A DNA stretch of 64,000 bases from Cystobasidiomycetes sp. EMM_F5 (GCA_051047955.1 JBPGPT010000004.1:372001-436000), one strand, 5' to 3'. Shown: positions 22,674 to 52,362, numbered from the stretch's first letter. Notes: generated by a model from the letters alone, not told the origin. A program made the numbers and translations.

Positions 22674-23091
22674 AGACATCCAAGCACGTACGAGCTGAAG
22701 AATCATGAACCTTGCACTCATCATGTAGCTTTTCTCTCTATCTTCACGCTTCGCAATACCTCATCTCGCGCTCTGCTTATTGGACGTAACCCGGTATACC
22801 CTGATGTTTCGGCAGTAGCATTTCTGCAATATGTTGTACTTTTACATCGTTAGCAATACTTTGAATGAAATACGCCTTGTTCTGTTCTGTAGCTTGCTTC
22901 GTTCATTTCGACTTCACTCTCACGTGCGGAGGTTGGTCTCAGACTCACACGCACCCAGGTCTGCCAGCCTGCTGCGACTGTCGGTATCCAGCGAGACTCG
23001 TACAAGTCGACCGCAGCACCTGCTGGAGCTGCAGGCTTCTGACGCCAGCTAGTCTGAGTTCCAGCCTGCCCGGTCTCAGGTTTCAGCCAAA

Positions 23092-25569
23092 ATGGACGGA
23101 CGCAGTACAAACCGGGTCAAGAACAAGGCCCCGTAGGTGTAGTCATGGCTTACAGGTGAGGACTCATTGGCTGATATGGGTTGCGCATCTGTCTAGGGCG
23201 CCAATCCAGATCACTGCCGAGCAGCTGCTTCGCGAAGCTCAAGAGCGGTCTGAAGCTCCGCATACAGCACCACGGCAGCGAGTCGAAGACTTTGAGGAGC
23301 TCAATGAGTTTCGAGGAAGGAAGCGACGAGAGTTTGAGGAGGTTATCCGACGGACGAGGTCAAATATCGCTGCTTGGATCAAATATGCCTACTGGGAAGC
23401 ATCCCAGGGAGAATATGACCGCTCGAGGTCGGTGTACGAGCGAGCTCTGGATGTCGATCCTACGGACGTCAAGCTATGGCTGTCGTATAGCGAAATGGTG
23501 CGTATATGCGTTTTCCCACTCTGACTCCCCGACATTGCTCATTGACGCTTTTAACATTGTTACAGGAACTGAAAGCTCGAAACGTACAACATGCTCGCAA
23601 TCTTTTTGATCGCGCAGTCACACTTCTTCCAAGAATATCGCAGATCTGGTATAAATACGTCTACCTCGAGGAACTACTCGGCAATATCGCTGGCGCGAGA
23701 CAGGTGTTTGAGCGATGGATGGCGTGGGAGCCCGACGAAAAATGCTGGAGTGCATACATAAAGGTAGAATTAGGGACAACGAGATGCAATACTATAAGCT
23801 GACGCTTTACATCCAGATGGAAATCCGGTATCACGAATACCAGAGAGCATCGAACGTTTACGAGCGCTTGATTGCGTGTCACCCAGAACCAAAGTTGTGG
23901 ATCAAATGGGCAAAGTTCGAAGAAGACGTTCGCAGCAACGTTGGTCGAGCTCGCGAGATTTTTCAGATGTCTTTGGAGTACTTCGGTGCTGGCGAGGGAG
24001 GAGCAGACGAGGAGGAGCAGATTGAAAAGTCGCAGTCCCTCTACAACGCTTTCGCCAAGTTGGAGATTCGTCAAAAGGAGTATGAACGTGCTCGTGTCAT
24101 TTACAAGTACGCCCTTGACCGCCTGCCAAGAAGCAAGAGTCAGGGCCTGTATACCGCCTACTCGCTATTTGAGAAACAGTTTGGCGACCGTCAAGGGATC
24201 GAGTCTACGGTTCTGGGCAAGAGAAGAATAGAGTATGAGGAGGAACTCAAGGATCAGCCTGCAAACTATGATGCTTGGACAGATTATGCAAGATTGGAGG
24301 AAGACGCGTTCCGATCCGAGGGCATCGATGCGAAAGCGGGCGGTGCGGATCGTGCGCGAGATGTATACGAGCGAGCGATAGCACAGCGGCCTCCGAGCAA
24401 CGAGAAGCGGCATTGGCGGAGATACATCTTCCTATGGCTAAATGTATGTCGAGACGGAAGAATAGCCGAAAAGCTCTGCTGATGCCCATCTTTTATAACA
24501 GTACGCCATGTTTGAAGAGATGGACGCCAAGGATATCGAAAGGACGCGCCAAATATACGAAGAATGCATAAAGTTGATTCCGCATAAATCCTTTACATTC
24601 GCCAAAGTCTGGACGCTGTATGCTCAGTTTGAAGTCCGACAACTCAATATTGACAAGGCCCGCAAGATTCTAGGAACCGCTATTGGCAAGTGCCCGAAGG
24701 AGAAACTCTTCAAAGACTACATTACTATGGAGATTCAGCTTCTCGAGTTTGACCGATGTCGACAACTGTATCAGAAATACATTGCCGTAAGTGTTTGAGG
24801 CGACGCGATTATCTGGGCTCTGCTAAACGACGGCTTCGTCTTTTTGCAGTACGACGTATCAAATGCCGCCGCCTTTATCAAGTTTGCGGAACTGGAAACC
24901 GAGCTTGGTGATCTTGATCGTGCGCGAGGCATTTTTGAGCTTGCGATTACGCAGCCGCTAGACATGCCGGAAGTGGTTTGGAAGGCATACATTGACTTTG
25001 AGTACGAGCAAGAGGAATGGGATCGAACTCGGGCGCTTTACCGACGCTTACTTGAGCGGACTTCACACGTCAAAGTCTGGATCTCGTGGGCACAGTTTGA
25101 GAGCAATGCCGGCAAGACCATTGCTCGTGCATACCGAAATCAGGATGATGACGAGGAGGATGAGGACGCAGACGAGTCTTCCGGAGCTGAAAAGAAGGAG
25201 GTCATTGTATCGCCTGAAGCCGAAGCTGCGGCGGTGCAACAAGAAGCTTCGGCAACCGAACAAGCTCGAGAAGTCTTCCGCCAGGGCTACAAGGATCTCA
25301 AGAGCCGACAACTCAAGCAGGAGAGGCTCATCCTGCTGGAAGCATGGCGTGCGTTGGAGACTGCCGACGGGGACGCCGAGTCGCTTGCAAAAGTCGAGGC
25401 CATGATGCCACGGGTTGTCAAGAAGCGCCGCACGACTGCGGATGGCAACCTGGAAGAGTATCACGACTTTATGTTTGCAGACGATGAAGAGCAGAAAGGG
25501 CCAGGTCTGTCCAAACTGCTGCTCGCTGCCCAGAAGTGGAAGAAGCAGCAGCAAACTGCGAGTACGTAG
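23092..25569 (+). CDS. CLF1: Crooked-neck HAT-repeat splicing factor Clf1/Syf3
   Basis: [21 protein letters not shown], repeated HAT motifs (WIKYA..E, RARxIYERA), [22 protein letters not shown]. Confidence 0.95.
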
Positions 25570-25760: not shown

Positions 25761-28700
25761 ATGTCTGCGCACGCTGGCAACGATGCGCTCGCGAGAGCTC
25801 TGCAGGCCGGCACTGAGGAAAAGGTGGAAATCAATCAGCGCGGTCTGGTGGAAAAGGCGAGGCAGTGATATATATTGGAATGGACTATGGAATATCCCAT
25901 ATACTGACTCATTACAACTTACAATGGACAGATCCTGGCCCGCTACAGCGTGCGTTGACGGGCATTCAATCATTCGTCACCGCCGTGCATGGCTGATATT
26001 GGTGGCAACACATATGTTTGCGACTGCAGGGCGAGCACACGCTGTTTCGAGAATTGCTGCAGAATGCAGACGACGCCAGCGCATCAGCCATAGAGGTTCA
26101 CTTTCAGACTCCGCAGGGCTCGGCGCATCCTGCCAGCTTGAAGGGCGTAATGATTAGTCGCATAACGGTGCGAAACAACGGAATCATATTCAGGGAAGAG
26201 GACTGGCGGAGATTGGGAGTCTCATACTCTGTCCCGACGAGTTCATGGGGACGCTAACAATCCATCCTACAGAAAGACCATCGCAGACGGGCAACCTGAC
26301 GAGAGTCGGATAGGCGCTTTCGGTGTGTACGTGCCAAGTATGCAAAGAACGATACTAACCAACGCTACATAAGGCGTCGGATTCTATTCAATATTCAGCG
26401 AATCCGATGAACCTCTAGTTGTATCGGGCGATTCAATGATGTTATTCTTCTGGAAGGGGGACCAACTAGCTGTCAAGCGTGCTGCAAATCCACGAGAGAA
26501 CGGGAGCGATGCAGAGTCACGGTCATGGACATCCATTCACATGCCCTGTCGCGTTCCTACAGCTTTTCCTGACCCTAGCGAGTGTGAGTTGTCCGCAATC
26601 ATTCATGTCAGCTTTGCGCTTACGCTAGATTGATGCGCCAGTCGCAAAGTTTCTGTGTACAGCTCTCGCCTTCACGTCGCATATAAAAACAATGGTCTTG
26701 AAGTTGGATAACTACGAGCTATGCCGGCTCGAAAGAAAAGCAGCTCCATCATCGCCGTTGCCCAACCTGCCTGGTGTCAACATGAAATCCCCTGGGCGGA
26801 TGATGACGGTCGCGTCCACCGAAGTTCTACCTCTGCAACTAGACTGCCGCATAATGCGTGGTGCGCTCTACTCGCAACAGGCACCGATAAAGAAGCTCGT
26901 CCAGGACGTAAAGACTAGCTTTGCTACAAAGTTTCTCAGCTTTGCAACCAACAATCGAAAACAAGTTGCTGCAGAAGCGGCAGACAAGGAGACGCCGCAG
27001 CCTAGTTCCGATCCTACGGAATACTTGACATCTTCCACATTTCTCAAGATTGTTACTGGCCAAGTGCAGCTTTCCATGCCTTCGGCAATCAAGCAAGAGT
27101 TTGAGCGAGCTACGAAGAAGTCGCCTCCCAAATTCACTCGCCTTCAGGTGCTGTTTACCAGTCGCGATGAAGTTGAGGCCTCCGATGGCCCTGACGTGAC
27201 AGGCGTCTCTGCGAGGTACGTTTTCAGCGGACTTACGCAGGAGCTTGGAAAGCAAGGCAGAGTAAGGACATCACCCGCTGTGCGCAATGCAAAACATTAT
27301 TCTGATATTGCTCAATTAAGGTCTTCATTGGTTTTCCTACCCATCAGTCTGTCGGATGCAGCGCGTCCATTGCTGGTCAATTCCTGCCTAGTGTGGAGCG
27401 TGAAAATATCGATCTGCAGAGCAGGGCGGTGTCAGAATACAATAAAGAATTGCTCGCCGTATCTGGTATCCTCTGTCGGTGCATCTACGATGGTGAGATG
27501 CAGGATATGGCAACCCAGTGGCAAAAGCTTGGTCCTGCTGCAGCCAGCACGCATTTGGATGAATTTCGCTCGCGTCTCATCCGGCGTGCTTCGCACTTAA
27601 TGGCATTCTTCACTTTCTATCCAGCCACCCCGTTTACAGAGGCAGGGCGTATCATACAGTCCAGCTTCTTTGCTTGTAACACTCGCGAGTATCTTCTAGT
27701 AAGTAATCAAGGTATCCTATCCACTGCAAGTATCCGCATGCCAGCACCCGATCTACACTTCCTGTCGGGTCTGCCTGTTGTGGCGGCCGACGCAGCGAGG
27801 GACAATGCCTACTTGCTCGAACAACTGCAAGATCGGAATCTCATTCGGACAGCTACACTCGATGATGTGTTGACGCAACTTCAGGAGAAGCCGCTGGATG
27901 TAGACGAAGCTTCAGCATTCTTCAAATGGTGGATTAGCCTATCTTGGAACGATCATTATGATGCTTCGTTATTACCGAAGCTCCGGAACGCTGCAGTCAT
28001 TACCGTGCCCAGCATCGACGGTTCAAGCGGTCGCGTGGTCCAACTTAGCTCGGTCAAGACCTACCTGAATACGAAGACTCTGTCGCCAGATCTGCCCTTA
28101 CCGTCTCATGTCTTGCCTGTAGGTTCGATTGTGTTGCTGATTTTAAGCGATCACTGCTGACACTCAAATCAGTACGCGATATCGCGCAACATACCCGCAT
28201 CCGACCTTGCTAGAGTCTTCTCGTTCAACGAACTGTCAGTCTTGGATTGGGTCAGGTATCTCATATCGCCCGAAGTGCTGGGGAATCTTGATACGAGCTT
28301 AACGCTATCAGCGCCGTTCGCTGAACGAGCTCATGGAGTTCTGGCTAAAGTCTGGGGAAACACGCCCCCACCGCAGACGGCCGAGATTTGTCGTCTGCTG
28401 AAGGATGTCGCGTGCATACCCACTAAGAAAGGCATGCACATACCCGCAGAGTCATACTTGCCAAAAGTGACCTTGTTTGACGATCGTAAGCCGTTGCTTG
28501 TGCCAAGTCTGGGCATTGTTGTGCTGACGTGAGCAACCAGTACCTGTAACGACATTGACGCTACGTGGAAGCATGGAGAAAATGCTCATTGCTCTGGGCA
28601 TCCGCACGCATGTGGACCTTGCGTTGGTCTTTTTGCGCCTGCTTGGTACGTCCGTGCAGCCAAGCTGTACATTGGCCAGACTCACACATACTTTATACAG

Positions 28701-31700
28701 GTGGAGGCCAGTGGCAGCAAGAACAGGTTGTACGTAATTACGACGCGTTAGATATGTAACTGCGTCTAACAATCTCCCTACCATTTCAGGCGCGTTATCT
28801 GGTGTCGGTGTCGGCAACTTTGACGCCAGAGGAGAAAGACAGGCTTACCAAAACTGCGTGGCTGACAAAAGAAGAATTGGCTGGGGCTGCACCTTCGGAG
28901 AAGCCGGAGCGGTACCAGGCTCGCAAGCTTTATGAACCGAATGATCACTTGCGAGATCTGGGGCTGCCTATCCTGGCCTGGACTGGCAGCAAATGGCGGA
29001 ATAATTCGGATGAAGCCAGGCTCCTATTCGGCCTCGGATTGAGACGGCACCCTCCGATAGAGGATATCCTTAAACTGGCGGCGGATCCTGCTAACGCTGC
29101 CAAGCAAGAGCGTGCCAGGACATACTTTTTCGCTCACTTCGAAACCGCATACAATCAGTCTTATCAACCCTCTCAACACGCTTTCGCATTCGTTCCAGTT
29201 ATGCGTGCTGGTCAAGCGACTTTCTCGATCCCCTCAGAAGCGTATTCTGCGCCAGGTTCCGGCATACTGGGCTTTGCGACGTTGAGGCCTGAGTTCCAGC
29301 TTCAGGCAGCCAAGTTCAAGTTGGCAGCCGATCCGAAGCCGGCGGCTCTTGTAGCAGCCCTTGTAGCCGACCCGCCGCGAGATCCTGCAGCAGCTATGCC
29401 AATCTTCGCGTATCTGGCAGGACAGGCTTCTCGTAAACGCTTATTCCAATTTAAGTAGATGCACGCTGACGGCAATGACCTTGCAGGCTTCGGTGCTGGA
29501 GAGTATGCAACTCTTGCCAATACTAAATTCATACCAGGACAAAATCCAGCTGGGCAAGAAGGAGTATTTGAGATGTACAATCCGCGACAAGTGTATTTCA
29601 AGACGCAGGAAGGGGGTTTGGCCCCTCACTTCCGCTCACTGTTTGTCTTCGTTGATTTCGGAACGGCTCCCAACGCGTTCTTGCTTCAGTGCGGCGTGCG
29701 AGCAGAACCGAGTACTGCAGAGCTGTAGGTGTGAAAACTCAGCGTCCAGTGCGTTTCTCTAATGTACGCGGTACAGAACGCAACTGCTACTCGCTGACCC
29801 AAAACGGTTCCTGACTCTTGCCGGGTCAGCGGATCGATACATCAGCCTGCTTCGGCAAGTCGCGGCACACTATTCCACATTCTCTGGAGCGCTCAAGAAG
29901 CGCATGAGAGACACGCCGTTTATACTTGGCTACGAGCAGGTCAGAGCCGCAGCCAAATTGCAGCAGAAGAGTCATGACGACGACGACGATGATGAGATCC
30001 TGCTTCAATGCCGACTCGGCTACGCAAGCGAGACTGTCATCATCGACGATACGACAACTTTGAATGACTTCCGCGAATTTATCCTCTCTGCTCCGCAAGA
30101 TGATCTCATTGAAGCATTTGTTGAGGTGGGCTATCCAGTCGTGTCATTGTAACCTCAGATCTTAACGCACCATCAGGATCTTGGCGGCAAACGTATTAGC
30201 AAGCTAGTCTCGACACAGTATACATCTTCACCAGTGCCAGAACAATCTTCTCCGCAGGCACTTCAGCTGCGGAAACTTGTTCTTGAGGTGAAGCACCGCG
30301 ATTGAGGGATGAATCCTATCTGACACGTTCTCGACAACAGCGCGCTGCTCTCTTCCTACATGAACGGCAGCAGACAAGCAAGGACGTTCGCTTCAACGAA
30401 GATTGGCTCAAAACGCATCTTATTGTGAAGGAAGTAGCGAACATCGAACGTGTACGTCCGCAGATTGAAACATTTCGTCTCACTGATGTCTGTGAGCAGC
30501 AACGTATACTCACCCTTGGCGTCTCAAGGCATGTCAAGACTAGCCCGGCATCTGCTGCAGCCACTCTGGGAGGTTCACAGCTTCTGCTGCGAGTTTCGTC
30601 GAATATGGATAGTCTGGACTACTACGAGGTTGCGGCATCCCTTACTGGTCTCATCCTGAATAAGCAGAGAATACACGATACGCTTTTATTTTTGACTTTG
30701 CTCCAGACCTCGTTGAAAGATCTGAAGAGACGTGGGTTCAATGTTGATCGAATCATGAATTCGAGAAAAGCCGAGCAAGAGGCGCAGCTACAGAAAGAGC
30801 GCGAGAACCGAGCTCAAGCTGATTTACAGAGGCTCAGAGAGCAAGAACAGACTCGAAAAGCTGTCAGACCGCCGAGTCTGGACGAGAAGAGTATGACTGG
30901 ATGTATGCTATCTGAGCACTATTTCCGGAGCGGTCTGACGTCTGTCCAGCCTTCCCAGATGTAACAAACGAGACGCAAGCACTGCTATCGAAAATTCAAC
31001 AAAGTCCGCATGCACCGCCGGTGCTCCCCCCTCGTTCATTGTTCGACAATCTGCGGTCTAAACTGCGTCAGCAACCCCCTCCGGCAGGTGGTAACGGTTC
31101 TCAGAATTTGATGGAGCAAGCTTTGTCTCAGCCCAATGGAAATCAGTCTGTAGCGCCTTCGCTGCCGTCGAAACACACAAAGCACATCGCCAATCAGCCT
31201 GACAGTCAAAGTGAGTATTTACTGAAGGCTGCATTGTTCAGCGTGCTAATAGTGACAAGCAGGCGCGGTCACTCCTCTCGATACTATTGCGCGAAATGTT
31301 CACCAAGCTATACAGGCCTGTAAGCCGGATCGTTCAGGCGATATCACGAGCACAATGCAAACAGAGGAGGTCAAGGAGTCGAACGGGCAGTATTGCGATT
31401 CGACAACTGCTACCGATCTACTGTATGTCGGCGATGTTTCCTCAATACGCCTGTACGTCGGACGCGCAGTGAATGAGGACATCATGGGCCGATACCGTCC
31501 GGAAATCGAATTGTTTGTTAATCAAATACTAAAGCCTGTTGGAGCGATATATAATGTCGATCCAGGCGCACTGCACATCTTTCACGACCCTTCGTCCAAA
31601 GCCGAGGCTTTCAACCGCTCCGGCAGCATATTCTTCAGTTTGACGTGGGTCTGGCGGAACATTAGCGTTTATCTTGCTAAAGCGTTCTCGACAGATATTA

Positions 31701-31964
31701 TTTACAACGGCATGCACAGAAGGTTGCACAGGGACAGCTCAGTGGTGCACTCATATCTACGTACATCAGCATGGCACATGAGGTCAGTTTGTAGTACGAT
31801 GGCGCGAGCGTTTGCTGATTCCCAAGTATTTGCTTCTCCAGTTGGCGCATAATCTGGTATTGCAACACAGTGCACAGCACTCTTACTATACCGAGTACAT
31901 GGCAGAAATATACTTCTTGCCTCTGGCCGGCTACATCGCAGAGCATTCAGCCGCGTCAGGCTAA
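25761..31964 (+). CDS. Large sacsin-like GHKL (HSP90-fold) ATPase, DUF3684-like, with C-terminal HExxH zincin-like domain
   Basis: Spliced N-terminus EINQRGLVEKILARYSGEHTLFRELLQNADDA, NNGIIF, GAFGVGFYSIF; internal FIGFPTHQSVG and ERENIDL. Spliced C-terminus AFNRSGSIFF...MAHELAHNLVLQHSAQH. Roughly 20 introns; stop TAA at 31962-31964. Confidence 0.85.
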
Positions 31965-33188: not shown

Positions 33189-35084
33189 ATGGAGAAGACA
33201 GCTCTGGGTCCGGCCCAAGCGAGACCCTTAGCCGATGATGTCGAAGCTGCCCAAATTCTGGAGGCAGAGAAGGAATTAGTCTTGGAAGGTGGTGAAGACC
33301 CACATAAGTGGTCGCGGGCGCGTAAAGTGGGTCCGTCTTTCTAGGGCATTATTGCTCGTTCTGTCTAAGTCGTAGTTGCGTCTATTGCAGATTCGAAATA
33401 ATGTCGTTCTGGCATATGCGACATTGTACGCGAAGTATTTACGCGTTTACCATTGCCTATCACTAAACTTGTAATTCATCTAGCGTCTTGACCTACTCGA
33501 GTTCAGCAATGACACCATCTCTTGCCGGGTTCATCGCATTTTATGGAGTTTCCAGAGAGGTCGCCTTGCTGAGCTTGGCCCTGTTCGTACTGGGTAAGCA
33601 AGACCGTATATCATGCAGATGCCAACCTTGCGCTAATGAATCTCTTCACAGGATTTGGCCTCGGACCCTTTCTAGCCGGGCCGACTTCAGAAGTCGTCGG
33701 CAGGCGGAACGTCTACATTGTCACCTACGTCTCATTTACAGCTTGGTCATGGGGTGCTGCATATGCGCCAAATATAGTCGCGCTAATCATCTTTCGCTTT
33801 CTCGCCGGCCTCAGCGGCTCGTCAAGTCTTACAGTGCACCCGGCCAGCATTTCGGACTGGGCCTCAATACAAGAACGCAATCGCTACTCGTCCAGCTATG
33901 CCCTCTGCGCTTTTGGAGGAGCTTCTATCGGACCACTCGTCGGAGGCTTTGTGGTCGTTTATGCCTCATGGCGATGGAACCTCATCGTCATTGCAATATT
34001 GGTTTCCGTCTCAGCGCTTGCAATCATAGTTGGAGCAGAAGAGACGTATGCTCCTGAACTACTTAAACGCAAGAACAAAAGGCATGGCCGGGCTGTTCCT
34101 CCGGGTCCTAGTCTCGGAGCTCGATACTATACTGCAATAGTGACACCGTTCAAGCTGCTCGTAAAGGAACCCGCGGTCGCAGCAGTCTCGTTATACTTGT
34201 CTTTCCGTGAGCTTGCTATCCCCCTCGTTGCGACCAGCTCCCGTCTAATGACATAATAGTATACGGACTTTTTTATGCCTTATTTCCGGGTCCGTCATAC
34301 TGAGCCGCCCTTTATTGTACTTTCTCGGCTTATAACAATTCTTCTCCAGTCTATCCAATTATTTACGTCCAAGTTCGCGGCTTCAGTCAGCAGGCGTTGG
34401 CCCTCACGTATATCGCTCCGACGCTAGGTTTCTTGCTTGGAGGAATAGTCCTCCGATATGGCCAGGACTATGCGTACAGCAAATGGATGGAGAAGATGCC
34501 TCCGGGCAAGATGCCACCACCTAACGCTCGATACGTATTGGTGCAATGGCTGAGCTGGACCGTGCCAGTGTGAGCCCGTCGGGAATGGGCGATGTTCGCA
34601 ACAAGCTAACCACAGTCACTCCCTCAGCGGTATATTCATATTGGCTTTCTGCTCGTACGCAAATCTACACTGGTTTGGCGATTGTGTCGGCGCCTTCCTC
34701 TTTTCCTTCGGCATGCTCATCGTATTTACAGGTTTCATACGTCCGTGAAGGCTTGTCTTGGCCGACCGTCATGCTGCTAATGCCTTTCTTGACTTTGGTA
34801 GCCTTCATTATCGATCTGTACTTGCGACAAGCTGCTTCAGCACTAGCCGCCACTACGGCTTCCCGAGCCATCTTCGCAGCTTCTTTTCCGCTCTTTTCAG
34901 CCAACATGTATGAGCGTCTCGGTATACCAGGCGCGTCAGGTCTACTGGCTGGAATTGCGCTTCTTCTGTTTCCGATTCCTTGGATCTTTACATGTGGGGT
35001 TTGCATCATCTAGTTGATTAGCATTTGTAAACTAATTTTTTGAACGTAGACTACGGAAATCGTTTATGGGGTCACCGTTTATGA
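33189..35084 (+). CDS. Major facilitator superfamily drug:H+ antiporter (DHA1-like)
   Basis: EDPHKWSRARK, GFGLGPFLAGPTSEVVGRRNVY, IFRFLAGLSGS, GPLVGGF, WRW, EETYAP, ASALAA, FPLFSANMYERLG. Confidence 0.9.
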
Positions 35085-36700: not shown

Positions 36701-39700
36701 ATGACCATGGCTGCAGCTCAGCCCCGCTCCGCGTCAATGAGACCGCCGTCAGCTGGGCGGGGCTCACTCCGACGTCGCAGTGCGGCATTCCTCCATGACC
36801 TGGTGCTGCCAGCCAAACCGAGCGATGGCTACGACGGCGAGTATCGGAGAGCGCTTCTCGAAGGCCGCGAAGAGGTCGGGCACGTCGCTACGTGGTATGG
36901 CTCGTTTACGACGTGAGGGCGCGTAGATTGGCTGGTATTTGGGGCGTGGTTTACTGACTTGGAGGTTCAGAATTGACTGGCTGCACGACTTGTGCAAGGA
37001 AGATTTTAGACGACGTACGCTGCGCCAGAGACCAGGCTGGCGAGGCGTCGTAGCGTCAAACTGGGACAGGCTCCAGGGATGGCTCGCAGTCCTATTGACA
37101 GGCCTCTTCACCGCCCTCATAGCCGCAGGGATAATATCGCTCGAGATGTGGTTATTCAGCATCAAAGACGGATACTGCACAAACGGATGGTGGAAAGCGC
37201 GAAGATTCTGCTTGTGTGCAGGCGCACATGATGTATCGCATAAAGTGGCAAATCTGCAGATAAACAAGGCGATTTCTCCACGTTCAGCTATAGCGACGAA
37301 CAGCTTTATCAACGTGTGGTCTTCGTCGCTGAAAGGACACGAAGAAATGACGTGCTCAGCATGGCAGGAGTGGGGAACAGTCCTCGATAGCAACGGCCAA
37401 CCGATCGTACAATGGCTCCTCGAGTATGGTGTATACATCTCTACTGCTGTAAGCATGTCTCGCGGGGGAACTGCTACCGTTATTGAAGTCTGTGCTCGGT
37501 TCACACAGCTCATGTTTGCGACCTTTGCCTCCGTACTGACAATCTATCTTTCCTCAAGCGACTCGGTCGTTTCCACCAAAGACGTTAATATCACCAATCC
37601 AGCACCTATGAGTGAGCGGATGCCGCCACATAGTGGTAGCCACCAGGAGTCTGTGCCAGGCGAGCCAACTGAATACAGGCACCTGCCTCGCTCTCGCTCT
37701 TTCGTATCATACGGAGCGACAGAATTCCGTCATCTCGACAGCCGTAAACAACAGAATCAGTCGTTACGGAGGCAGCAGTCCCGCGCTTCATCGCATGGCT
37801 TCAGTCAGGGCTCTCCAGTACCCAATCAAGATGGCTTTGCAAACACTGCGAGACCATTCTCCACGCCTGGATCGCGCTCGCACTCGAGACATAATTCATA
37901 TCAGCCGTTAGCTCCGCCATTTGTCTCTTCAGAACCTCCTCCATTGGTGAAGCGCAAGACTATGTACTTTGCAGCAGGATCTGGGATTCCCGAGGTATTT
38001 TCATATTTCAATTAACTCGACTTTGCCTAACCTCGTATTCTAGATCAAAACCCTTCTCAGCGGGTTTGTTATTCGAGGATACCTGGGCGGCTGGACTTTG
38101 TAAGTAGAGATCATGCTTTAAGTGTAGACTTGCTTACGAGTAAAGCGCATCATCAGGTTGGCCAAGTCAGTCGGACTATGCTTCTCAGTGGGCTCCGGTC
38201 TCAGTTTGGGCAAAGAGGGGCCGTTTGTGCATATTGGTGAGTATTCACCTCTCGCACTGAGAGACAGGGTCTATGCTCACAAACTTCCAAAGCTTCCTGT
38301 GTCGGCAACATCATTAGTCGTTTCTTTCACAAGTTTGACAGTAATGAAGCAAAACGTCGAGAGATCCTCTCCGCAGCGTGCGCTGCTGGCGTTAGCGTCA
38401 GTTTTGGAGCTCCTGTGGGCGGCGTACTGTTTTCTCTCGAGGAAGTCTCGTAAGTGGTACTGTCATAGGCTCGGCCGGCCCAGCAGGGCACTGTTGACGA
38501 TACGACATAGATACTTCTTCCCACCGAAAGTTCTCTTTCGCTCATTCGTCTGCGCCATGGTTGCTGCCACGACACTGCGATTCCTCAATCCATTTGGGAC
38601 AGGCAAGATTGTCTTGTTTCAGGTTACGTACGACAAGGATTGGCATTTTGCAGAACTCATTGGCTTTGCGTTTCTGGGTATTTTCGGCGGAGTATACGGG
38701 GCACTTTTCAACAAGGCGAACGTAGCATGGAGTACGTCTCTAGAGACTGTCAACCTGATATGCATAGTGCTGATGGCCAGGACCTGGTTCTCGTCGTGCC
38801 TGCGATTTAGCCAAGTACGTACGGAACGGGACGTCACTGAAGAAGCACCCAATACTGGAAGTCGCAGCAGTCTGCCTTGTTACAGTCGCAATCTCCTTTT
38901 TCAACCGCTTTACTCGAATGGGAGGCACGGAGCTCGTTTTCGAAATGTTTTCGGAATGCTCGTTTGACGACAATCTGAGCGGTCTGTGCGTACGCACGCC
39001 AGCTCAGGTCCCGCAGATTCTGCTCGTCATTGGTGCTGCGTTGACTGCGAAGGTGTTCCTCACAATTATAACGTAAGTGCGATCTTAATGTGTCGCAAAA
39101 CATCTTTTGACAGGCAGAGAAGCTTTGGTATACGCGTTCCAGCAGGCATCTTTATCCCTACCCTGGCCGTTGGGGCATGCTTTGGACGGATCGTCGGACT
39201 GGTTATCGAGATGGGATACGCAAAGTATCCAGAGTCACCACTCTTCGCTTTCTGTAACGCCACTGGACCATTGCCAGCGCCCTTCGGACAAGCCTGTGTC
39301 CTGCCCGGTGTATATTCCATGGTGGGCGCAACAGCCACTCTGGCTGGCGTGACCCGCACGACTGTCTCGCTAGCTGTTATCATGTTTGAGGTATATGCAG
39401 CGCTCAATTAGAGCAACAGCCTTGCTGAATCCTTGTTCACCGATAGCTTACCGGCACGCTTACATACGTGACGCCCGTCATGGTAGCTGTCCTTTTCTCG
39501 GTCACCGTTGCGAATGCTTTCGAGAGTCGATCAATCTATGATTTGGTCATCAAGTGAGTGTTCTTTATGCTATTGATGTCGAATAGATAGCTGATGTCTT
39601 TTGGGAGCTCAGTGCCAATCATCTTCCGTATCTTGATGCCAAGGAGGAGCACATCCTTGTCGGCACCTGCATGGATGTAACGGATACGGATGCACCAGTC

Positions 39701-43699: not shown

Positions 43700-45572
43700 A
43701 TGCTGAGGCAGCTCCGGCATATTTCTCCAAGAAGATCCTACTCCGGAATGTCGTCCGCCTTACCGAACCTAGCCTTCTTTCAGAAAGCTCATGCAGCAGC
43801 AAAGAAGAATCCAAGCAAGCCTGCTATCATCGACACGAGGACTGGAAAGTCGCATACCTACGGCGACTTGCTGAATGATGCCCAAAAGTTCCGAAAGAGC
43901 ATCTCGCCGAACGGACAAGACATACAAGAAGCACGCGTCGCCGCTCTGGTGCCCAATGGATGTAAGCCTATTTGCCTACTCCTGTCCTTCAATTGCTGAT
44001 GTTTGACACGTGCGACCTGCTTAAGATTCCTGGGTAGTCGCGCAATGGGCGACATGGGTAAATTTAGAACACTTGCCCATCATTTACAAGCATTGTTGAC
44101 ATTGCTCTATAATATCCAGGCTGCTGGAGGCTTCTACGTCCCAATCCTACACACTCACCCGGTAGCGGAGATGACATACATTGTCGAAAACTCGCAATCG
44201 GACAAGCTCATTGTGCACAAGACTTTGGAAGACAAGGGCAGGCAGTTGGCAGAGCAAACGGGGTACGTAGAGTTCACTGCTCGCTATACATTTCGCTGAC
44301 TGTTCTCTATGGCAGCGTGAAGGATGTGATTATTATTGACGAAGATTTCGAGACATCTGCTGGAAAGCATGAGCTTCCTGAAGTCAGCAGCGAGCCTTTC
44401 GACGCAGAAAGATCCGCTTTCATGCTGTATACCAGCGGTACAACGTGAGTGCCATTTGTCACTGCTCATTCACGAATCCAGCTGAAAATCTCGTCTACAA
44501 TGCCAGCGGCAAGCCGAAAGGTGTACAAATGTCACACAAATCCCTCGCAGCACAAGCGCAAAGCATGACCGAATGCTGGCACTGGACCGAGAACGACAAG
44601 ATTCTACATGTTTTGCCACTTCACCATATTCACGGCGTTTCGAATGTTCTCTTGACAGCGCTGTACAATGGCGCCACTGTTGAATTCATGCCTAAATTCG
44701 ATGCTCCCGGTATTTGGAAACGATGGATGGCACCCGAACGGGATTTGACACTCTTCATGGCCGTTCCCACTATTTATTCCCGTCTCATCGAAATTTGGTC
44801 GGCGATGTCTGAAGACGAACAAAAGAAAGCAACAGAGTCGTGTAGACAGTTCCGTCTAATGGTATCTGGGTCCGCCGCACTACCCTCGCCGTTGAAAGAA
44901 AAGTGGAGAAGCGTCTCCGGTGGACAGGTTCTTCTGGAACGATATGGCATGACAGAGACGGGCATGATCATCTCATGCGGAATGCCTGAGCATCACAGAG
45001 TCGACGGTCACGTTGGCCTGCCTATGCTCGGTCAAAACGTGCGGTTGTGGGACGAAGAGCAGAACAGGGACGTTACCGACGAGCTGGAGACACCCGGTGA
45101 GATCCAAATACGTGGAGACCTTGTCTTCAAAGGCTACTGGCAACTTCCTGAAGTCACCAAGAAAGAGTTCACCTCAGATGGCTGGTTCAAATCTGGAGAC
45201 ATCGGAATACGCACCAAAGAGACGGGATTCTTCAGAATACAAGGCCGGAACAGCACTGACGTTCTAAAATCGGGGGGAGAAAAGATATCTGCGCTTGAGG
45301 TGGAGCGAGAACTGCTTTCTTTGCCGAATATCAAAGATGCGGCAGTGGTAGGCGTGCCCGATGCCCGGTGGGGTCAGCTGGTCGCATGTGTGCTGGTACT
45401 TCGCGATCCACAGCAGCAGATGGATATCAAACAGCTACGAGAGGCTTTGCGCAGCCGCCTGGCGAATTACAAAATCCCTCAAGCACTTAAAATTTACGAA
45501 AATGAGCTGCCTCGATCAGCGATGGGCAAGGTGAATAAGAAGGAGCTCGTCAAAGTCGCCTTTCCATCATGA
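43700..45572 (+). CDS. AMP-forming acyl-CoA synthetase, ACSF3/malonyl-CoA synthetase-like
   Basis: YTSGTTGKPKG (split by an intron), LPLHHIHG, LERYGMTE, GWFKSGD, KSGGEKISALEVE, PRSAMGKVNKK; Arg-rich presequence. Confidence 0.9.
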
Positions 45573-45676: not shown

Positions 45677-47785
45677 TCATAACCATTCTACTGTCGCCGG
45701 TGGTTTGGTAGTAATGTCCATGGTGACACGGTTGACACCGGGTACTTCGTTTGTGATGCGGTTTGAGATCTGGCGGAGAACGCTATGAGGGAAGTCATAC
45801 CAATCGGCTGCGATTACAGGATTAGCGTTAGTACAAGGCCAGGCGGAGCTGCAAGCGTACCAGTCATGAAATCTGTCGTTGTTACTGCCCGTAAAGCAAT
45901 GACTTGTTCATATGTCCTGCAAAGAAGTAGTGGTCAATAAAAATGCAAGGTAGGCGAGGATGCACCGTACCTCGCATCGCCCATAACACCGACAGCCTTG
46001 ACAGGTAATAAGACGCAGAAAGCTTGCGCGATCTCGTCATAAATGCCAGCTTTCCGGATCTCTTCAATGTAAATCGTGTCTGCCCGCTGTAACAGCTCGA
46101 CCTGAGAGCGAGTGACCGGCCCAAGTATACGAATAGCTAAGCCTGGGCCGGGGAAGGGATGTCGCTGCACGAGGTGATTTGGTATATGTAGTAGTCTGCC
46201 GAGCTCTCGGACCTCGTCTTCAGCGAGCGAACACCAAGCCGTCAGCATATTCGAACGTACGTAGACTGATTCATCCACATACCCTTGAATAGTTCTCGCA
46301 ACGGCTCGATTAGCTTCAGCTTCATGTCCTTCAGCAGACCACCAACGTTATGATGCGTCTTGATGGTGGCGGAAGGGCCCTTGAAACTAATTGATTCAAT
46401 AACATCCGGATATAATGTTCCTTGTAAGAGCCATTCAATCTTGCCCTTCGCCTCCGAAGTCTGCCCGGCAGCTTTTGCGGCTTCGAAGTCCTTTTCCGCC
46501 TCGGCTTCCAATTCAGCAGCCTTCTTCTCGAAAACATTGATAAAGGTGTTTCCGATAATCTTGCGCTTCTGTTCGGGATCTTCGACATCCTTGAGCCGCT
46601 CCAAGAACAGATCAGATGCGTCGACGACCGTCAGGTTCACCCCGAGATCCTCATTGAGCATCTTGTGAACCTGGACAGCCTCGTTCTGTCTGAGTACGCC
46701 GTTGTCTACCATGATAGCATGGAAGCGGTCTCCAATAGCCTCGTGCATAAGCTTGGCCGCAACAGATGAGTCCACACCGCCAGACACTGCACCAATAACG
46801 CGCCCGTGCGTCCCGCAGATCTTGCGGATGCGTGCAATCTCCTTGTCGATAAAAGTCGACATCTTCCAGTCTCGCTTTACTCCGCATATCGCTGTGAAGC
46901 GATCAAATATCTCTTTGCCGCGAGGGGAATGGGTCACTTCGGGGTGGAATTGTATGCCGTAGTACTTCTGAGCATGATGCGCGATAGCAGCAAAAGGTGC
47001 GGATGGTGTGGTAGCGATTTTGACGAATCCTGAAGGCAATTGACGGACAATGTCGGAGTGAGACATCCATACCTGCGATAATCGAATTATCAGGTCACTG
47101 TTTGTGTTTTGCAGCAGAGAGGGCAAAATACCGGTAGCTCGCCCTCGACACCTTCGAAGAGCAAGTCGACATGCTTGCCTACTCGAAAGCCGCCGGCCTT
47201 CGCATCGTCGCTGTGATCGCGCAGTACAGATACAACGGCCTTGCCGTATTCTCGATGATTTGCGCTCTCGACGGCAGAACCAAAGAAATTGCTCATCTCT
47301 TGCAGACCATAACAGATACCAAGTACTGGGACTTTATTGATTTCAGGGTTAAAGATGTCGGGGTCAATTCTAGGTGCATCATCGTCGTAGACAGAGTACG
47401 GCGATCCAGACAGTATGATACCTGCGTAAAGGTAAATCAGCGCGTGTTAACAGCATTACACAGACTATTCGCAAGTACCCGAAGGCTTGAAAGGAACATC
47501 TCTCAATTTTGTTGTGCATGGCAGCATTTCGCCATACACGCCCAACTCTCGCAGGCGCCGGACGATAAGATGGGAGTACTGGGATCCAAAGTCGAGCACC
47601 AGGCTGCATACGCGTGAACATCATATCATGTAACTTGGTCAGTCTCGCTCGCGCTCAAGAAGATATCCGATATCGATCATGCTACGGTCAAGCTGCCCAG
47701 CTCACATCGTGTCGTAGGCGTCTGCAATGTTGGTGACGCCAGGCTCATCTGCGTCGCTGACATGGTTGCTCATTGTCGCCGCCAT
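45677..47785 (-). CDS. GUA1: GMP synthase (glutamine-hydrolysing)
   Basis: [74 protein letters not shown]. Confidence 0.97.
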
Positions 47786-49363: not shown

Positions 49364-52122
49364 CTAACTACTTTTAACCTCCTTCAACTCTGCATTCAGC
49401 CTCTCCCAAGTCTCTTCTTCCTCAAACGACGACTTTGTTCGTCCCAAAAAACTGCGCAAGATGCTCTTGGCTTGACTCCGCCAGTCATCCATAATCAATC
49501 CTCCGTCCCCTTGGGGCGCATCCTTCCCTCCCAGATTCCGCAACGCATCTACAGTCTCTTGCACGCGAGTCGCTATCCGCTCAAAGGCCGCTTTGGAGAT
49601 GGTAAAGTCGTCATTCTGACCTATGTCCACTCGATAGGCTTTCAGATGAGCTTCGAGAGCTGCTCTCGTATCACCTTGCGCCAAAAGAAAGCGAGCATAC
49701 GACTCGTAAATACGTGATGAATTGCTGATTCGCTTGAGTATGACATTCTCGAACAGATTGCGCACTTGCCCTGCGAGTCCGCGCGTAAAGCCAGCTGAAT
49801 GATGGCAAAGTCAGCCAAAGAAGAAGCACAACTCTGCAGCTCATATTTACCCTTATCTCCATTACTGGTCGTATCCTTCCCGGCTTGATGACGTACCACA
49901 ATGCCCACCAAGCGGTCCAAAACTTCGAGATCAACTGCTGCCTCGCCATCCTTGTCGGCACGCAGCTCGACAAGGCGCGTCATTGCACGACAAGCCTCCA
50001 TCATCTCACCCACATCCATGCTGACGTATAGATAGTTTACCCATATTCTCCAGCTGTCGTATGAATGCTTGATTGCTTGCCCGAGACACGTATACGCCGT
50101 ACGTTTCTTGCTGTAGAGCAAGTCTCGCTCTTCTTGCGAGTCTTGCGAGGTTGCCAACGTAGATTTGCATTGCTCCAGCACGACGGTAGCAAGGTTGTTC
50201 CAGGCTTCTCCATCCTCGTCATCCAGACTCGTACACCTGCGGAATGCCCGCTCTGCTGCTACCCAGTCCTCGTTCCGCATTGCAGCGCAGCCCATGATGA
50301 ACCAGACTTTGCCAAACAGCGGGTTGATTTGTAATGCCTTGTCGAGACACTCCTGCGCAAGACTCCACTCTCCTTTGCTAAAGTGAACCTGCCCCAACGA
50401 CCGCATAGCCCGTGAGCTAGTACCATTTGAGACTCGCCAAGCTGTCTCATAATGCTCGGTTTCGTGCTGAAGATCTCCCAACAAGCACCACAATTTTGCC
50501 TTTTGTGCTGCAGATAGTTGACGTCCCTTTTTAAGCGACATTGTGGTATTGCTCTCCACTAACTTTCCGTCGAGCAGATCTTTGACCACCTTTACGGCTC
50601 GGTCGTCCTCTCCTAGGCTTGAATAGCATTTCGCCACATCCTCCCACATCTCGAGCCGAGTAAAGATTTCTAGTGCTGATCTGACTACGCCTAGTCCGAG
50701 GAAGCGGGTTGCTAACTCTCTCTCAAGCTCCCATGTCGAAGGCGAGTCTAGGGTATAAAAGTATCGCAGACGCTCGTAAGGTGTAGCGCCCTTCTCTAGG
50801 TCCAGCCCATTTGTATCCTTTGCGCACGACACGCTCTCGAGCTTGAGTTGATCCACTAGACTCTGTATCTGCAATAAGCCACGCTCGACTGTCCGTGTTC
50901 GATTCGCCTCGAGCCTTGATCGTAAGAGGAGAGCCATAGAGTGTACCGACCAGTTCTGCGATCCGTCACTCAAAACTCTTGCTACGAAAGCTGCTATCTG
51001 TTCCGTCGTCAAGCCGTGATTTGGAGACGTATTTGTTATGCTCAACGACAAGGCAAGCAAGATGCACTGATCGAGCGGATGTAGGACTGGCTGATCATTT
51101 GGATCGATAGAGGTGAGGGGGTTCTCATTGCTGGCATTGGTAATGCCACTGGAAGACGTAAAGTGTGGCCGTTCAAGAAGAGTGTCATCGTTCAACAAGA
51201 GCGTCTTGGGTTGATCCGGCTCTTCGGCATTCTGCAAGTCTTGTCCGTCAACGTATTCCGGCTGCAGGCTCATTACTTTTCGCGGGGTCCAGCCGTCCTT
51301 GCGTTCTCTGCTACGTGCTAGCACGACGAGCTGACTCTTTTCATCAATCTGCCACTTTGTCCGCTTACCCATGCGCCCTGTCAATTCATACTGTAGTTGA
51401 GCTAGCTTTGCAGCAGCGTAGAATTGGTCGTTGGAAGATTTTGTAGCGGAAGATGACAGGTGGACGAATTGCGCATGATATAGGCCGATGAGGAGGGTGA
51501 TGACGGTCTGCAAGTCTCGATATTGTGCTAAATTGGGTGACACAGAGTTGGAGTATGCCTGTACTTCCGACAAAAGGTCCGGCTCGATTGGAACTGGCGT
51601 GTCGAGGAGTTTTAGGTTCACGAGAGCACATCTGAAGCGCCAAACCGGTATGCTCTTGAGGATACCGTTGTTCCAGCTGGATGGATCAAAAATCTCTCTT
51701 GCTAGCCATAGGAAGCCCGCGCGTTTTGCGAGATGGTATGCGGGTTCGCCGTGCATAGACAGCTCTTCCACGGCTCTTGCATTCACAGCCTGGCTGTCGA
51801 GTCCCTCCCCGAAGAGCTCGCTGGGATCCAGCTCTACATCTGGACCTGTCCAATTTGTCTGGACAAAAGCCTGCAACGCTGCAATGCCGCACACCAGGCG
51901 GTCCATCTCAGACACATCGTGGTTGTCGAAGCGTACGACGAGGGCGTGCTCAGCGCTAGCAGAGTAGTGGAAGCAGTTGGCATGTTTTCTCAGGATTGCA
52001 GCATATTCAGACTGGACGATGACGGCGTGGACGGCAGGACACTGCGATGGCGACCAGCTCGGGAGCCAGCTGGATAGCAGCAGGGCATGTTCATACGACT
52101 GCGGCATATTATCGATGGCCAT
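49364..52122 (-). CDS. EMW1: TPR-repeat protein Emw1/TTC27
   Basis: LQAFVQTNWTGP, LTGRMGKRTKWQ, DDTLLE, NWSVHSMALLLRSRLE, SALEIFTRLEMWE, TPR repeats (EAWNNLA, SWRIWVNY). Confidence 0.9.
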
Positions 52123-52362
52123 GATGGTTGCTACATGCGCCGGGTGTCGCTGAAGATTCGAGAGCAACTTCGGGGAACGTTCAAAGCTGGCGCAATTTGT
52201 CAACACTGCTAGCGAAGCACATCTCTGTACTAATCGGCATTGCTGTCATGGCGCCATCTCATTCTCGTTCGAGGTTCTATACTGCTTCAATAAGAGCTAC
52301 ATATTCCATCCATTTTTTACTGGAAAATCGTCGTTGACCCAACAACCCTTTCTATACTGATG

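Follow-up and report, generated by a model that had tools for sequence, protein, structure and literature searches.

Zinc in Saccharomyces cerevisiae Wss1 is bound by His115, His119 and His125 and Glu116 acts as the base, the E116Q variant being inactive (PMC5557861); both Wss1 and SPRTN act with the ATPase Cdc48/p97, which works in trans (PMC7782752). A preprint dated 1 October 2026 (10.64898/2026.09.30.754977) treats DUF3684 as the core that Tiamat, NO VEIN and sacsin-like proteins have in common, describes Tiamat of B. cereus as an ATPase and single-stranded DNase whose ATPase site is needed for defence, and mentions in passing that ATPase-DUF3684 fusions often have a C-terminal metallopeptidase; its companion (10.64898/2026.09.30.755639) describes a beta-sheet motif that ends the sacsin repeats in NO VEIN (NOV), Tiamat and sacsin. 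Here we analysed a gene located in a stretch of 64,000 nt from the fungus Cystobasidiomycetes sp. EMM_F5 (GCA_051047955.1 JBPGPT010000004.1:372001-436000), hereafter the window. With a probability of about 0.55, we consider it an intact gene for a 1,721-amino-acid (aa) GHKL ATPase of the sacsin/Tiamat branch that ends in a Wss1/WLM-like minimal zinc metalloprotease. Since the first preprint already mentions such fusions, this architecture is not new, being catalogued but uncharacterised.

In the predicted protein the ATP-binding domain was followed by a DUF3684 solenoid of about 1,050 aa, an alpha/beta domain, a charged helix, a linker and the zincin, whose predicted zinc site was complete (H1680, E1681, H1684 and H1690, together with the conserved H1694). 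A first-pass annotation of the window had proposed a fusion of a sacsin/HSP90-like GHKL domain, a long body, a charged coiled coil and a C-terminal protease; GHKL, DUF3684, helix and zincin were indeed found in that order.

The gene model contained 19 exons and 18 introns of 50-80 nt (Table 1). Its coding sequence of 5,166 nt gave 1,721 aa with no internal stops, the earlier size estimate of around 1,600 aa being about 120 aa short, and its start (ATG) and stop (TAA) were those of the gene extent given previously, 25761-31964 on the + strand. Without splicing, this interval contained no long open reading frame (ORF) on the + strand, only a chain of frame-shifting open stretches. Introns were placed by tblastn of three collinear homologues (P0001, P0013, and P0004) together with splice-site consensus, and all the splice junctions have this double basis. 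Donors were GT in 17 of the 18 introns and GC in the remaining one (intron 1, at 25857, GCGAGG), and the acceptor was AG in every case. Over its whole length the spliced product could be aligned with 11 full-length homologues, to which it was 29-37% identical, and the alignment showed no change in length at the junctions. Three junctions were weaker on sequence grounds: that of intron 1 with its GC donor (25857), that of intron 3 with an AAG acceptor (26276), and that of intron 15, whose acceptor at 30949 has 30958 as an alternative. Intron density was very high, with 18 introns within 6.2 kb, and three introns displayed an AAG rather than a YAG acceptor, as dictated by homology (sites among 26219-26276, 26323-26373, and 27262-27320).

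Intron 31783-31841 (59 nt, GTCAGT...CAG) separated HE from LAH, and the split of HELAH reported by the first-pass annotation was thereby reproduced exactly, both in the spliced model and in the alignment. Its reading of the last exons, AFNRSGSIFF...YISMAHE followed by LAHNLVLQHSAQH, was also correct, the dots spanning a further intron (31645-31694) that falls between IFFSLT and YYLQ. The possibility that all this reflects an artefact, namely an incorrectly spliced model, a pseudogene in decay or an HExxH that arose by chance, is very improbable and already largely refuted. Such an explanation could invoke the homology and consensus basis of the junctions, the GC donor and several AAG acceptors that the model requires, and a closest database relative only ~37% identical overall, but 5,166 nt are open across 19 exons, the exon boundaries fit the homologue alignments without changes in length, and the motif, for which chance gives 0.001 HExxHx5H per protein, is kept family-wide. 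As far as sequence comparison goes, we regard the locus as confirmed to be an intact fungal gene and its hidden HExxH as genuine.

A single HExxH was present in the protein, at aa 1680, with the spacing H-E-x2-H-x5-H; the number expected by chance from the composition of the protein itself was 0.048 for HExxH and 0.001 for HExxHx5H. HE[LI]AHN occurred near the C-terminus of the 11 homologues longer than 1,600 aa (11/11), four shorter matches stopping before this region, and H, E, A, H, N and the third H were invariant in the 12-row alignment. Conservation of H-E-x-x-H-x5-H across orthologs, set beforehand as a check, was borne out by a census of 162 sequences that were not selected for the motif. 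Among the 129 that cover the metal site, 123 presented H-E-H-H with the HExxHx5H spacing (H-E-H-N-H-H in 115 of these) and 125 had the fourth His, four residues past the third. The motif is not due to chance, since it is conserved family-wide in homologues. Sequences not covering the site were mostly gene fragments reading through an intron, as in P0087 (the nearest relative of the window protein), where the read-through follows HE, the position of the window's own intron, and in P0144 and P0159, where it follows HEIA. When the C-terminal 194 aa of P0004 were compared by phmmer with 1.84 billion representatives, 896 cluster representatives of the tail family were recovered with E ≤ 1e-3, of which 531 had E ≤ 1e-10; the domain was at the extreme C-terminus in all 44 matches of at least 1,300 aa among the matches listed. 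Nothing was found when the C-terminal exon alone was used as query against longer proteins. The 94 short tail homologues came mostly from contigs of ~1 kb and are therefore probably fragments.

The fold of the tail was approached by profiles and by structure prediction. No Pfam family covered the tail, and precomputed domains were present in 0 of the 94 short homologues. For five full-length homologues, the only Pfam matches of the tail were WLM (E 0.1) and Reprolysin_5 (E 0.0012). Below the threshold, WLM was the commonest match among 51 domain sequences (25/51, best E 0.0024), with Reprolysin_5 next (7/51), and all the families matched in this way were peptidases (WLM, Reprolysin_5, M48, and SprT). 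An AlphaFold2 model of the homologue P0036, built from a 51-row alignment, had a mean predicted local distance difference test (pLDDT) of 83; the value was at least 90 for 158 residues and exceeded 90 over the domain. In this model, HE ended the helix formed by residues 218-233 and the third His was in the following loop. In the Foldseek comparison that had been proposed for the last ~200 aa, made with this homologue model, the top rows were minimal zincins (selecase, S. cerevisiae Wss1, and abylysin), and none of the Foldseek matches reached E ≤ 0.001. VIA-align, run with the P0036 model against 48,161 chains, placed S. cerevisiae Wss1 (5xbn) at rank 1 (score 7.4, root mean square deviation [rmsd] 3.0 Å, 109 aligned residues) and S. 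pombe Wss1 (5ln5) at rank 2 (6.6, rmsd 2.6 Å, 96 aligned), followed by TAF2, lugdulysin and ERAP1 at ranks 3-5 (5.2-5.5), which are zincin folds or relatives; YbeY-type structures (1xm5 and 1oz9) were found at ranks 7-8 (4.9) and SPRTN (6mdx) at rank 18 (4.3). ESM Atlas gave only unnamed clusters for the C-terminal domain. Judging from the model, the tail is predicted to be a zincin fold whose nearest solved structure is Wss1; the WLM/Wss1 type was among the families the first-pass annotation had named for this end, and both the two first VIA-align ranks and the commonest sub-threshold Pfam family agree with it.

The spacing of the metal site, H-E-x2-H-x5-H, and the Asn after the second His are identical in Wss1 and in the window protein. 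The window tail differs from Wss1/WLM structures (PDB 5xbn, 5ln5, and 5jig) in its ~100 additional N-terminal residues, which bear conserved motifs (QAC and YCD), and in a fourth His that is likewise conserved; it is fused in cis to a GHKL ATPase.

A metzincin was considered for the tail and rejected. Metzincins (reprolysin / adamalysin) are characterised by H-E-x2-H-x2-G-x2-H with an invariant Gly, and the window sequence HELAHNLVLQH has Val at the Gly position (family consensus HELAHNLVxxH); as the Gly of HExxHxxGxxH is absent, the tail is not a metzincin. A sequence profile search of the PDB with the tail gave motif-level adamalysin matches only, with E values of 0.038 or weaker.

Another explanation is that the C-terminal domain is a metal-dependent hydrolase of a non-protein substrate, such as a YbeY-like endoribonuclease. 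The three His of YbeY share the H-x3-H-x5-H spacing. Such an activity would also suit the nucleic-acid effectors, nuclease or HEPN, of other sacsin/Tiamat members, superfamily relatives being described with PD-(D/E)xK or HEPN effectors (10.64898/2026.09.30.754977 and 10.64898/2026.09.30.755639). We nevertheless consider it improbable: all the sub-threshold Pfam matches are peptidase families, and the Glu directly after the first His, which marks peptidases, is not known to be conserved in YbeY.

At the other end of the protein, the three GHKL boxes reported by the first-pass annotation (ELLQNADDA, NNG, and GAFGVGF) were all found in the spliced product. ELLQNADDA agreed with motif I (E-x3-N-x2-D, with the catalytic Glu and the Mg-binding Asn), QN and DA being invariant in the 12-row alignment, and GAFGVGF with motif III (G-x-x-G-x-G, the ATP lid), FGVGFY being invariant in 12 of 12 sequences. 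Exon 3 alone, from a domain spread over five exons, matched Pfam SACS (PF25794) with E 2.2e-5 and 24.8 bits (cut-off 32.8); the homologues reached 56.8-76.5 bits with this family and 51.8-61 bits with NCBIfam NF047352 (cut-off 50). The products of six window exons matched PF12449 in order (115.8, 278.9, 90.2, 205.5, 57.2, and 91.8 bits; cut-off 27), covering profile positions 1-1054 of 1098, and homologues matched this family as well. The PADLOC models of TmtA, the Tiamat protein, matched the homologues with E values from 1.7e-19 to 6.7e-27, mainly over the ATPase and, in P0004, also over residues 931-1159 of the core; window exon 7 was matched at E 1.1e-4. These profile matches indicated a relationship of the core to Tiamat, an antiphage ATPase of bacteria.

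The window protein and Tiamat thus share a sacsin-type ATPase and a DUF3684 core. Tiamat and plant NO VEIN carry a PD-(D/E)xK / NOV_C nuclease, whereas the window protein ends in a zincin with an intact HExxH; in Tiamat the nuclease sits on the same core at the position where the window protein has the zincin. No Pfam match to PD-(D/E)xK (DUF3883 / NOV_C) was obtained in the window exons, nor in five full-length homologues at E ≤ 10. As the nuclease is unmatched and the C-terminus is a zincin, we call the protein Tiamat-like and not Tiamat. With human sacsin it has in common the type of ATPase (Pfam SACS, NCBIfam NF047352) and, behind it, a region of solenoid repeats, but it has one repeat unit where human sacsin has three, and a zincin at its end, without UBL, J and HEPN.

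Several observations weigh against an active ATPase-protease. The canonical form of GHKL motif II is D-x-G-x-G, which the window protein does not have (N-N-G-I-I at aa 87-91, and N-[ND]-G in the homologues). We take N-[ND]-G to be the form typical of the sacsin branch; the NNG motif therefore argues against a canonical GHKL site and not against membership of that branch. Because motif II reads NNG, as in the whole sacsin branch, ATPase competence would depend on the analogy with Tiamat and sacsin. With respect to the tail, no Pfam peptidase family reached its cut-off, the best WLM match (P0013) having 13.1 bits and E 0.1 against a required 26, and the modelled tail is that of P0036, which is 37% identical to the window tail spliced from three exons. 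Moreover, a residue needed for catalysis or as a ligand is missing from 6 of the 129 homologues: in P0048, P0074, P0066, P0099 and P0117, Glu is replaced by Gln or Val with the three His kept, and P0084 presents R-E-C at first His/Glu/second His and Glu at the third His, so that Glu is kept and two of the three His are lost. By their sequences these six variants are likely inactivated lineages. Finally, according to the preprint, a Wss1-like metalloprotease fold without HExxH, and inactive, follows the Tiamat core (10.64898/2026.09.30.754977). As Tiamat's own Wss1-like folds are inactive, the superfamily does, by this account, use this fold non-catalytically.

These data bear on what we see as an unlikely alternative, that the C-terminal domain is a metal-binding, non-proteolytic module for client binding, regulation or dimerisation, in which the His are kept for structure. 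Its role would parallel the one proposed for Tiamat's inactive fold, Wss1-like folds without active sites being described in the same superfamily (10.64898/2026.09.30.754977), and could be compared with that of the Hsp90 C-terminal dimerisation domain. GHKL clamps need a second dimer contact, and the window protein is without Tiamat's dimerising nuclease. Since five of the six variants lose only Glu and keep all three His, metal binding may matter on its own. On the other hand, the catalytic Glu was present in 123 of the 129 homologues, across ascomycetes and basidiomycetes, a pattern not easily reconciled with a lack of catalysis; among the 123 sequences whose site is intact, 115 had Asn next to the second His, and Wss1 outranked every Hsp90 domain in VIA-align.

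Under the reading that we prefer, an ATPase ending in a live zincin, we infer protease activity, ATP coupling and biological role for the fungal protein. Proteostasis, DNA-protein crosslink repair and defence, put forward by the first-pass annotation, would be candidate roles. An ATP-driven clamp would carry the tail on a tether as an active zinc protease. A protein, or a nucleic acid to which protein is bound, would be captured by the solenoid core as client or trigger; the N-terminal domain would control access by binding and hydrolysing ATP, after which the protease on its tether would cleave the client or its own chain. By analogy, this logic would resemble that of Tiamat, with its nuclease effector, and that of Wss1 and SPRTN, for which Cdc48/p97 is provided in trans, whereas the fungal protein would have its ATPase in cis.

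FtsH-type proteases also combine an ATPase and an HExxH zinc protease in a single chain, as an AAA+ module and an M41 ring. The window protein differs from them in carrying a GHKL and not an AAA+ ATPase, in the flexible tether of its Wss1-like zincin, and in that no membrane anchor was seen.

Table 1. Features of the ATPase-zincin gene and its predicted product, in window coordinates.
Feature	Position	Strand	Basis
Whole gene, ATG to TAA	25761..31964	+	Open frame, splice dinucleotides, tblastn collinearity, full-length alignment
Introns 1-9	25857-25931, 25950-26029, 26219-26276, 26323-26373, 26584-26641, 27262-27320, 28119-28172, 28486-28540, 28646-28700	+	
Introns 10-18	28727-28789, 29433-29486, 29725-29776, 30126-30176, 30288-30340, 30891-30949, 31211-31262, 31645-31694, 31783-31841	+	
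Sacsin-type GHKL (Bergerat) ATPase domain, aa 1-187, exons 1-5	25761..26583	+	Pfam/NCBIfam profiles, motifs
Motif I, ELLQNADDA, aa 46-54	26051-26077	+	
NNG motif, aa 87	26174-26182	+	
GAFGVGF, aa 114-120, interrupted by intron 26323-26373	26313-26384	+	
DUF3684 core (sacsin-repeat / Tiamat core), aa 187-1254, exons 6-14	26642..30287	+	PF12449, TmtA models
Small alpha/beta domain, aa 1255-1385, directly after DUF3684, without His/Glu metal site	30341..30733	+	Structure prediction
Long charged helix, aa ~1389-1428	30743..30862	+	Predicted structure
Linker of ~90 aa, rich in Pro, Gln and Ser, includes intron 30891-30949	30863..31210	+	Composition, gappy alignment
Predicted C-terminal Wss1/WLM-like minimal zincin domain, aa 1525-1721, exons 17-19	31263..31961	+	
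Metal-site motif, interrupted by intron 31783-31841	31777..31880	+	
H1680 and E1681	31777-31782	+	
H1684 and N1685	31848-31853	+	
H1690	31866-31868	+	
H1694, conserved fourth His	31878-31880	+	

Immediately behind the DUF3684 core came the product of exon 15 (aa 1255-1437), which was confidently predicted to form a small alpha/beta domain and then a long helix (pLDDT 89). For the model of this product Foldseek returned nothing at E ≤ 0.001, ESM Atlas gave no usable match for the domain, and the PADLOC TmtA models matched neither this domain nor the C-terminal one, even at E ≤ 10. Profile-profile comparison of the exon-15 and C-terminal domains gave a probability of only 0.5%, and sequence support for an internal duplication is thus absent. 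The alpha/beta domain may tentatively be viewed as an inactive zincin-like fold that corresponds, by position, to the inactive metalloprotease-like fold of Tiamat; in that case the place of the effector would be taken by the C-terminal zincin, and the protein would, equally tentatively, carry two zincin-type modules. The only globular structural matches of the exon-15 domain were weak and of zincin type (YbeY-like, selecase, SPRTN, and abylysin).

The long helix corresponded to residues 135-174 of the exon-15 product (pLDDT 94-98), and 19 of the 43 residues at aa 1388-1430 were D, E, K or R. Of the charged coiled coil that had been annotated at 30760-30860, it is the charged helix that reappeared in the predicted structure. 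From its sequence, the linker that follows is poorly conserved and probably disordered.

A near-invariant Cys was found in the YCD motif of the tail (aa 1568-1570, ~31390-31400), which together with QAC lies ~110 residues upstream of HExxH; a latency of the cysteine-switch type is one idea for this residue. Sub-threshold matches to CUE, a ubiquitin-binding domain, appeared in 4 of the 51 tail alignment sequences, which were homologue fragments (best E 0.009).

The relatives of the window protein are fungal DUF3684 proteins annotated as "Sacsin/Nov domain-containing" (1,636-1,950 aa), which display the full architecture, the GHKL boxes and the HE[LI]AHN-x4-H tail, as in the window; examples are N7468_000448 of Penicillium chermesinum (P0013) and C8Q79DRAFT_956470 of Trametes meyenii (P0004). 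The window protein was divergent, the closest of the 11 full-length homologues being ~37% identical overall, and for its C-terminal domain the nearest relative was P0087, with 54% identity. Going by these alignments, it is a divergent member of a widespread, catalogued and unstudied family. Our literature searches brought up no dedicated study of the fungal family, the supplements of the bioRxiv preprints being a place where fungal members may be listed.

Sacsin, linked to a human ataxia, NO VEIN, with functions in plant development and in the response to viruses, and the phage-defence protein Tiamat all have the ATPase-solenoid core, and the fungal branch is large (the 896 sequence clusters mentioned above), nearly always with a complete Wss1-type zinc site at its end. 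Proteolysis would provide a tractable readout for the ligand of the core and for the control that ATP exerts on an attached effector, and the fungal branch offers a natural comparison for the inactive protease-like folds of Tiamat. A broader proposal can be formulated, about which we are doubtful: the fungal DUF3684 proteins would constitute a new class of ATP-dependent proteases, with a GHKL and not an AAA+ clamp and a live Wss1-like zincin in the place of Tiamat's nuclease, plus a dead zincin module that follows the core, like the one in Tiamat, NO VEIN and sacsin. The "pseudoprotease" fold of the whole sacsin superfamily would be explained by these proteins, as its catalytically intact counterpart, and they would clear nucleic-acid-bound proteins or act as fungal immune effectors. 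With regard to annotation, gene models easily miss the catalytic motif, as in several database fragments that read through an intron in or just after it.

Upstream of the studied gene, the window contained a multi-exon HAT-repeat gene (22865-25569, + strand) of the Syf1/Crooked-neck (Clf1-type) pre-mRNA splicing factor kind, three ORF pieces of which matched HAT and HAT_Syf1_CNRKL1; it ended ~190 nt before the ATG. Other ORF pieces, at 33573-34256, 38128-38967, 44382-45572, 46242-47333 and 49642-52245, matched ordinary eukaryotic housekeeping families (an MFS transporter, a CLC chloride channel, an AMP-binding enzyme, a GATase plus NAD-synthase protein, and a TPR protein).

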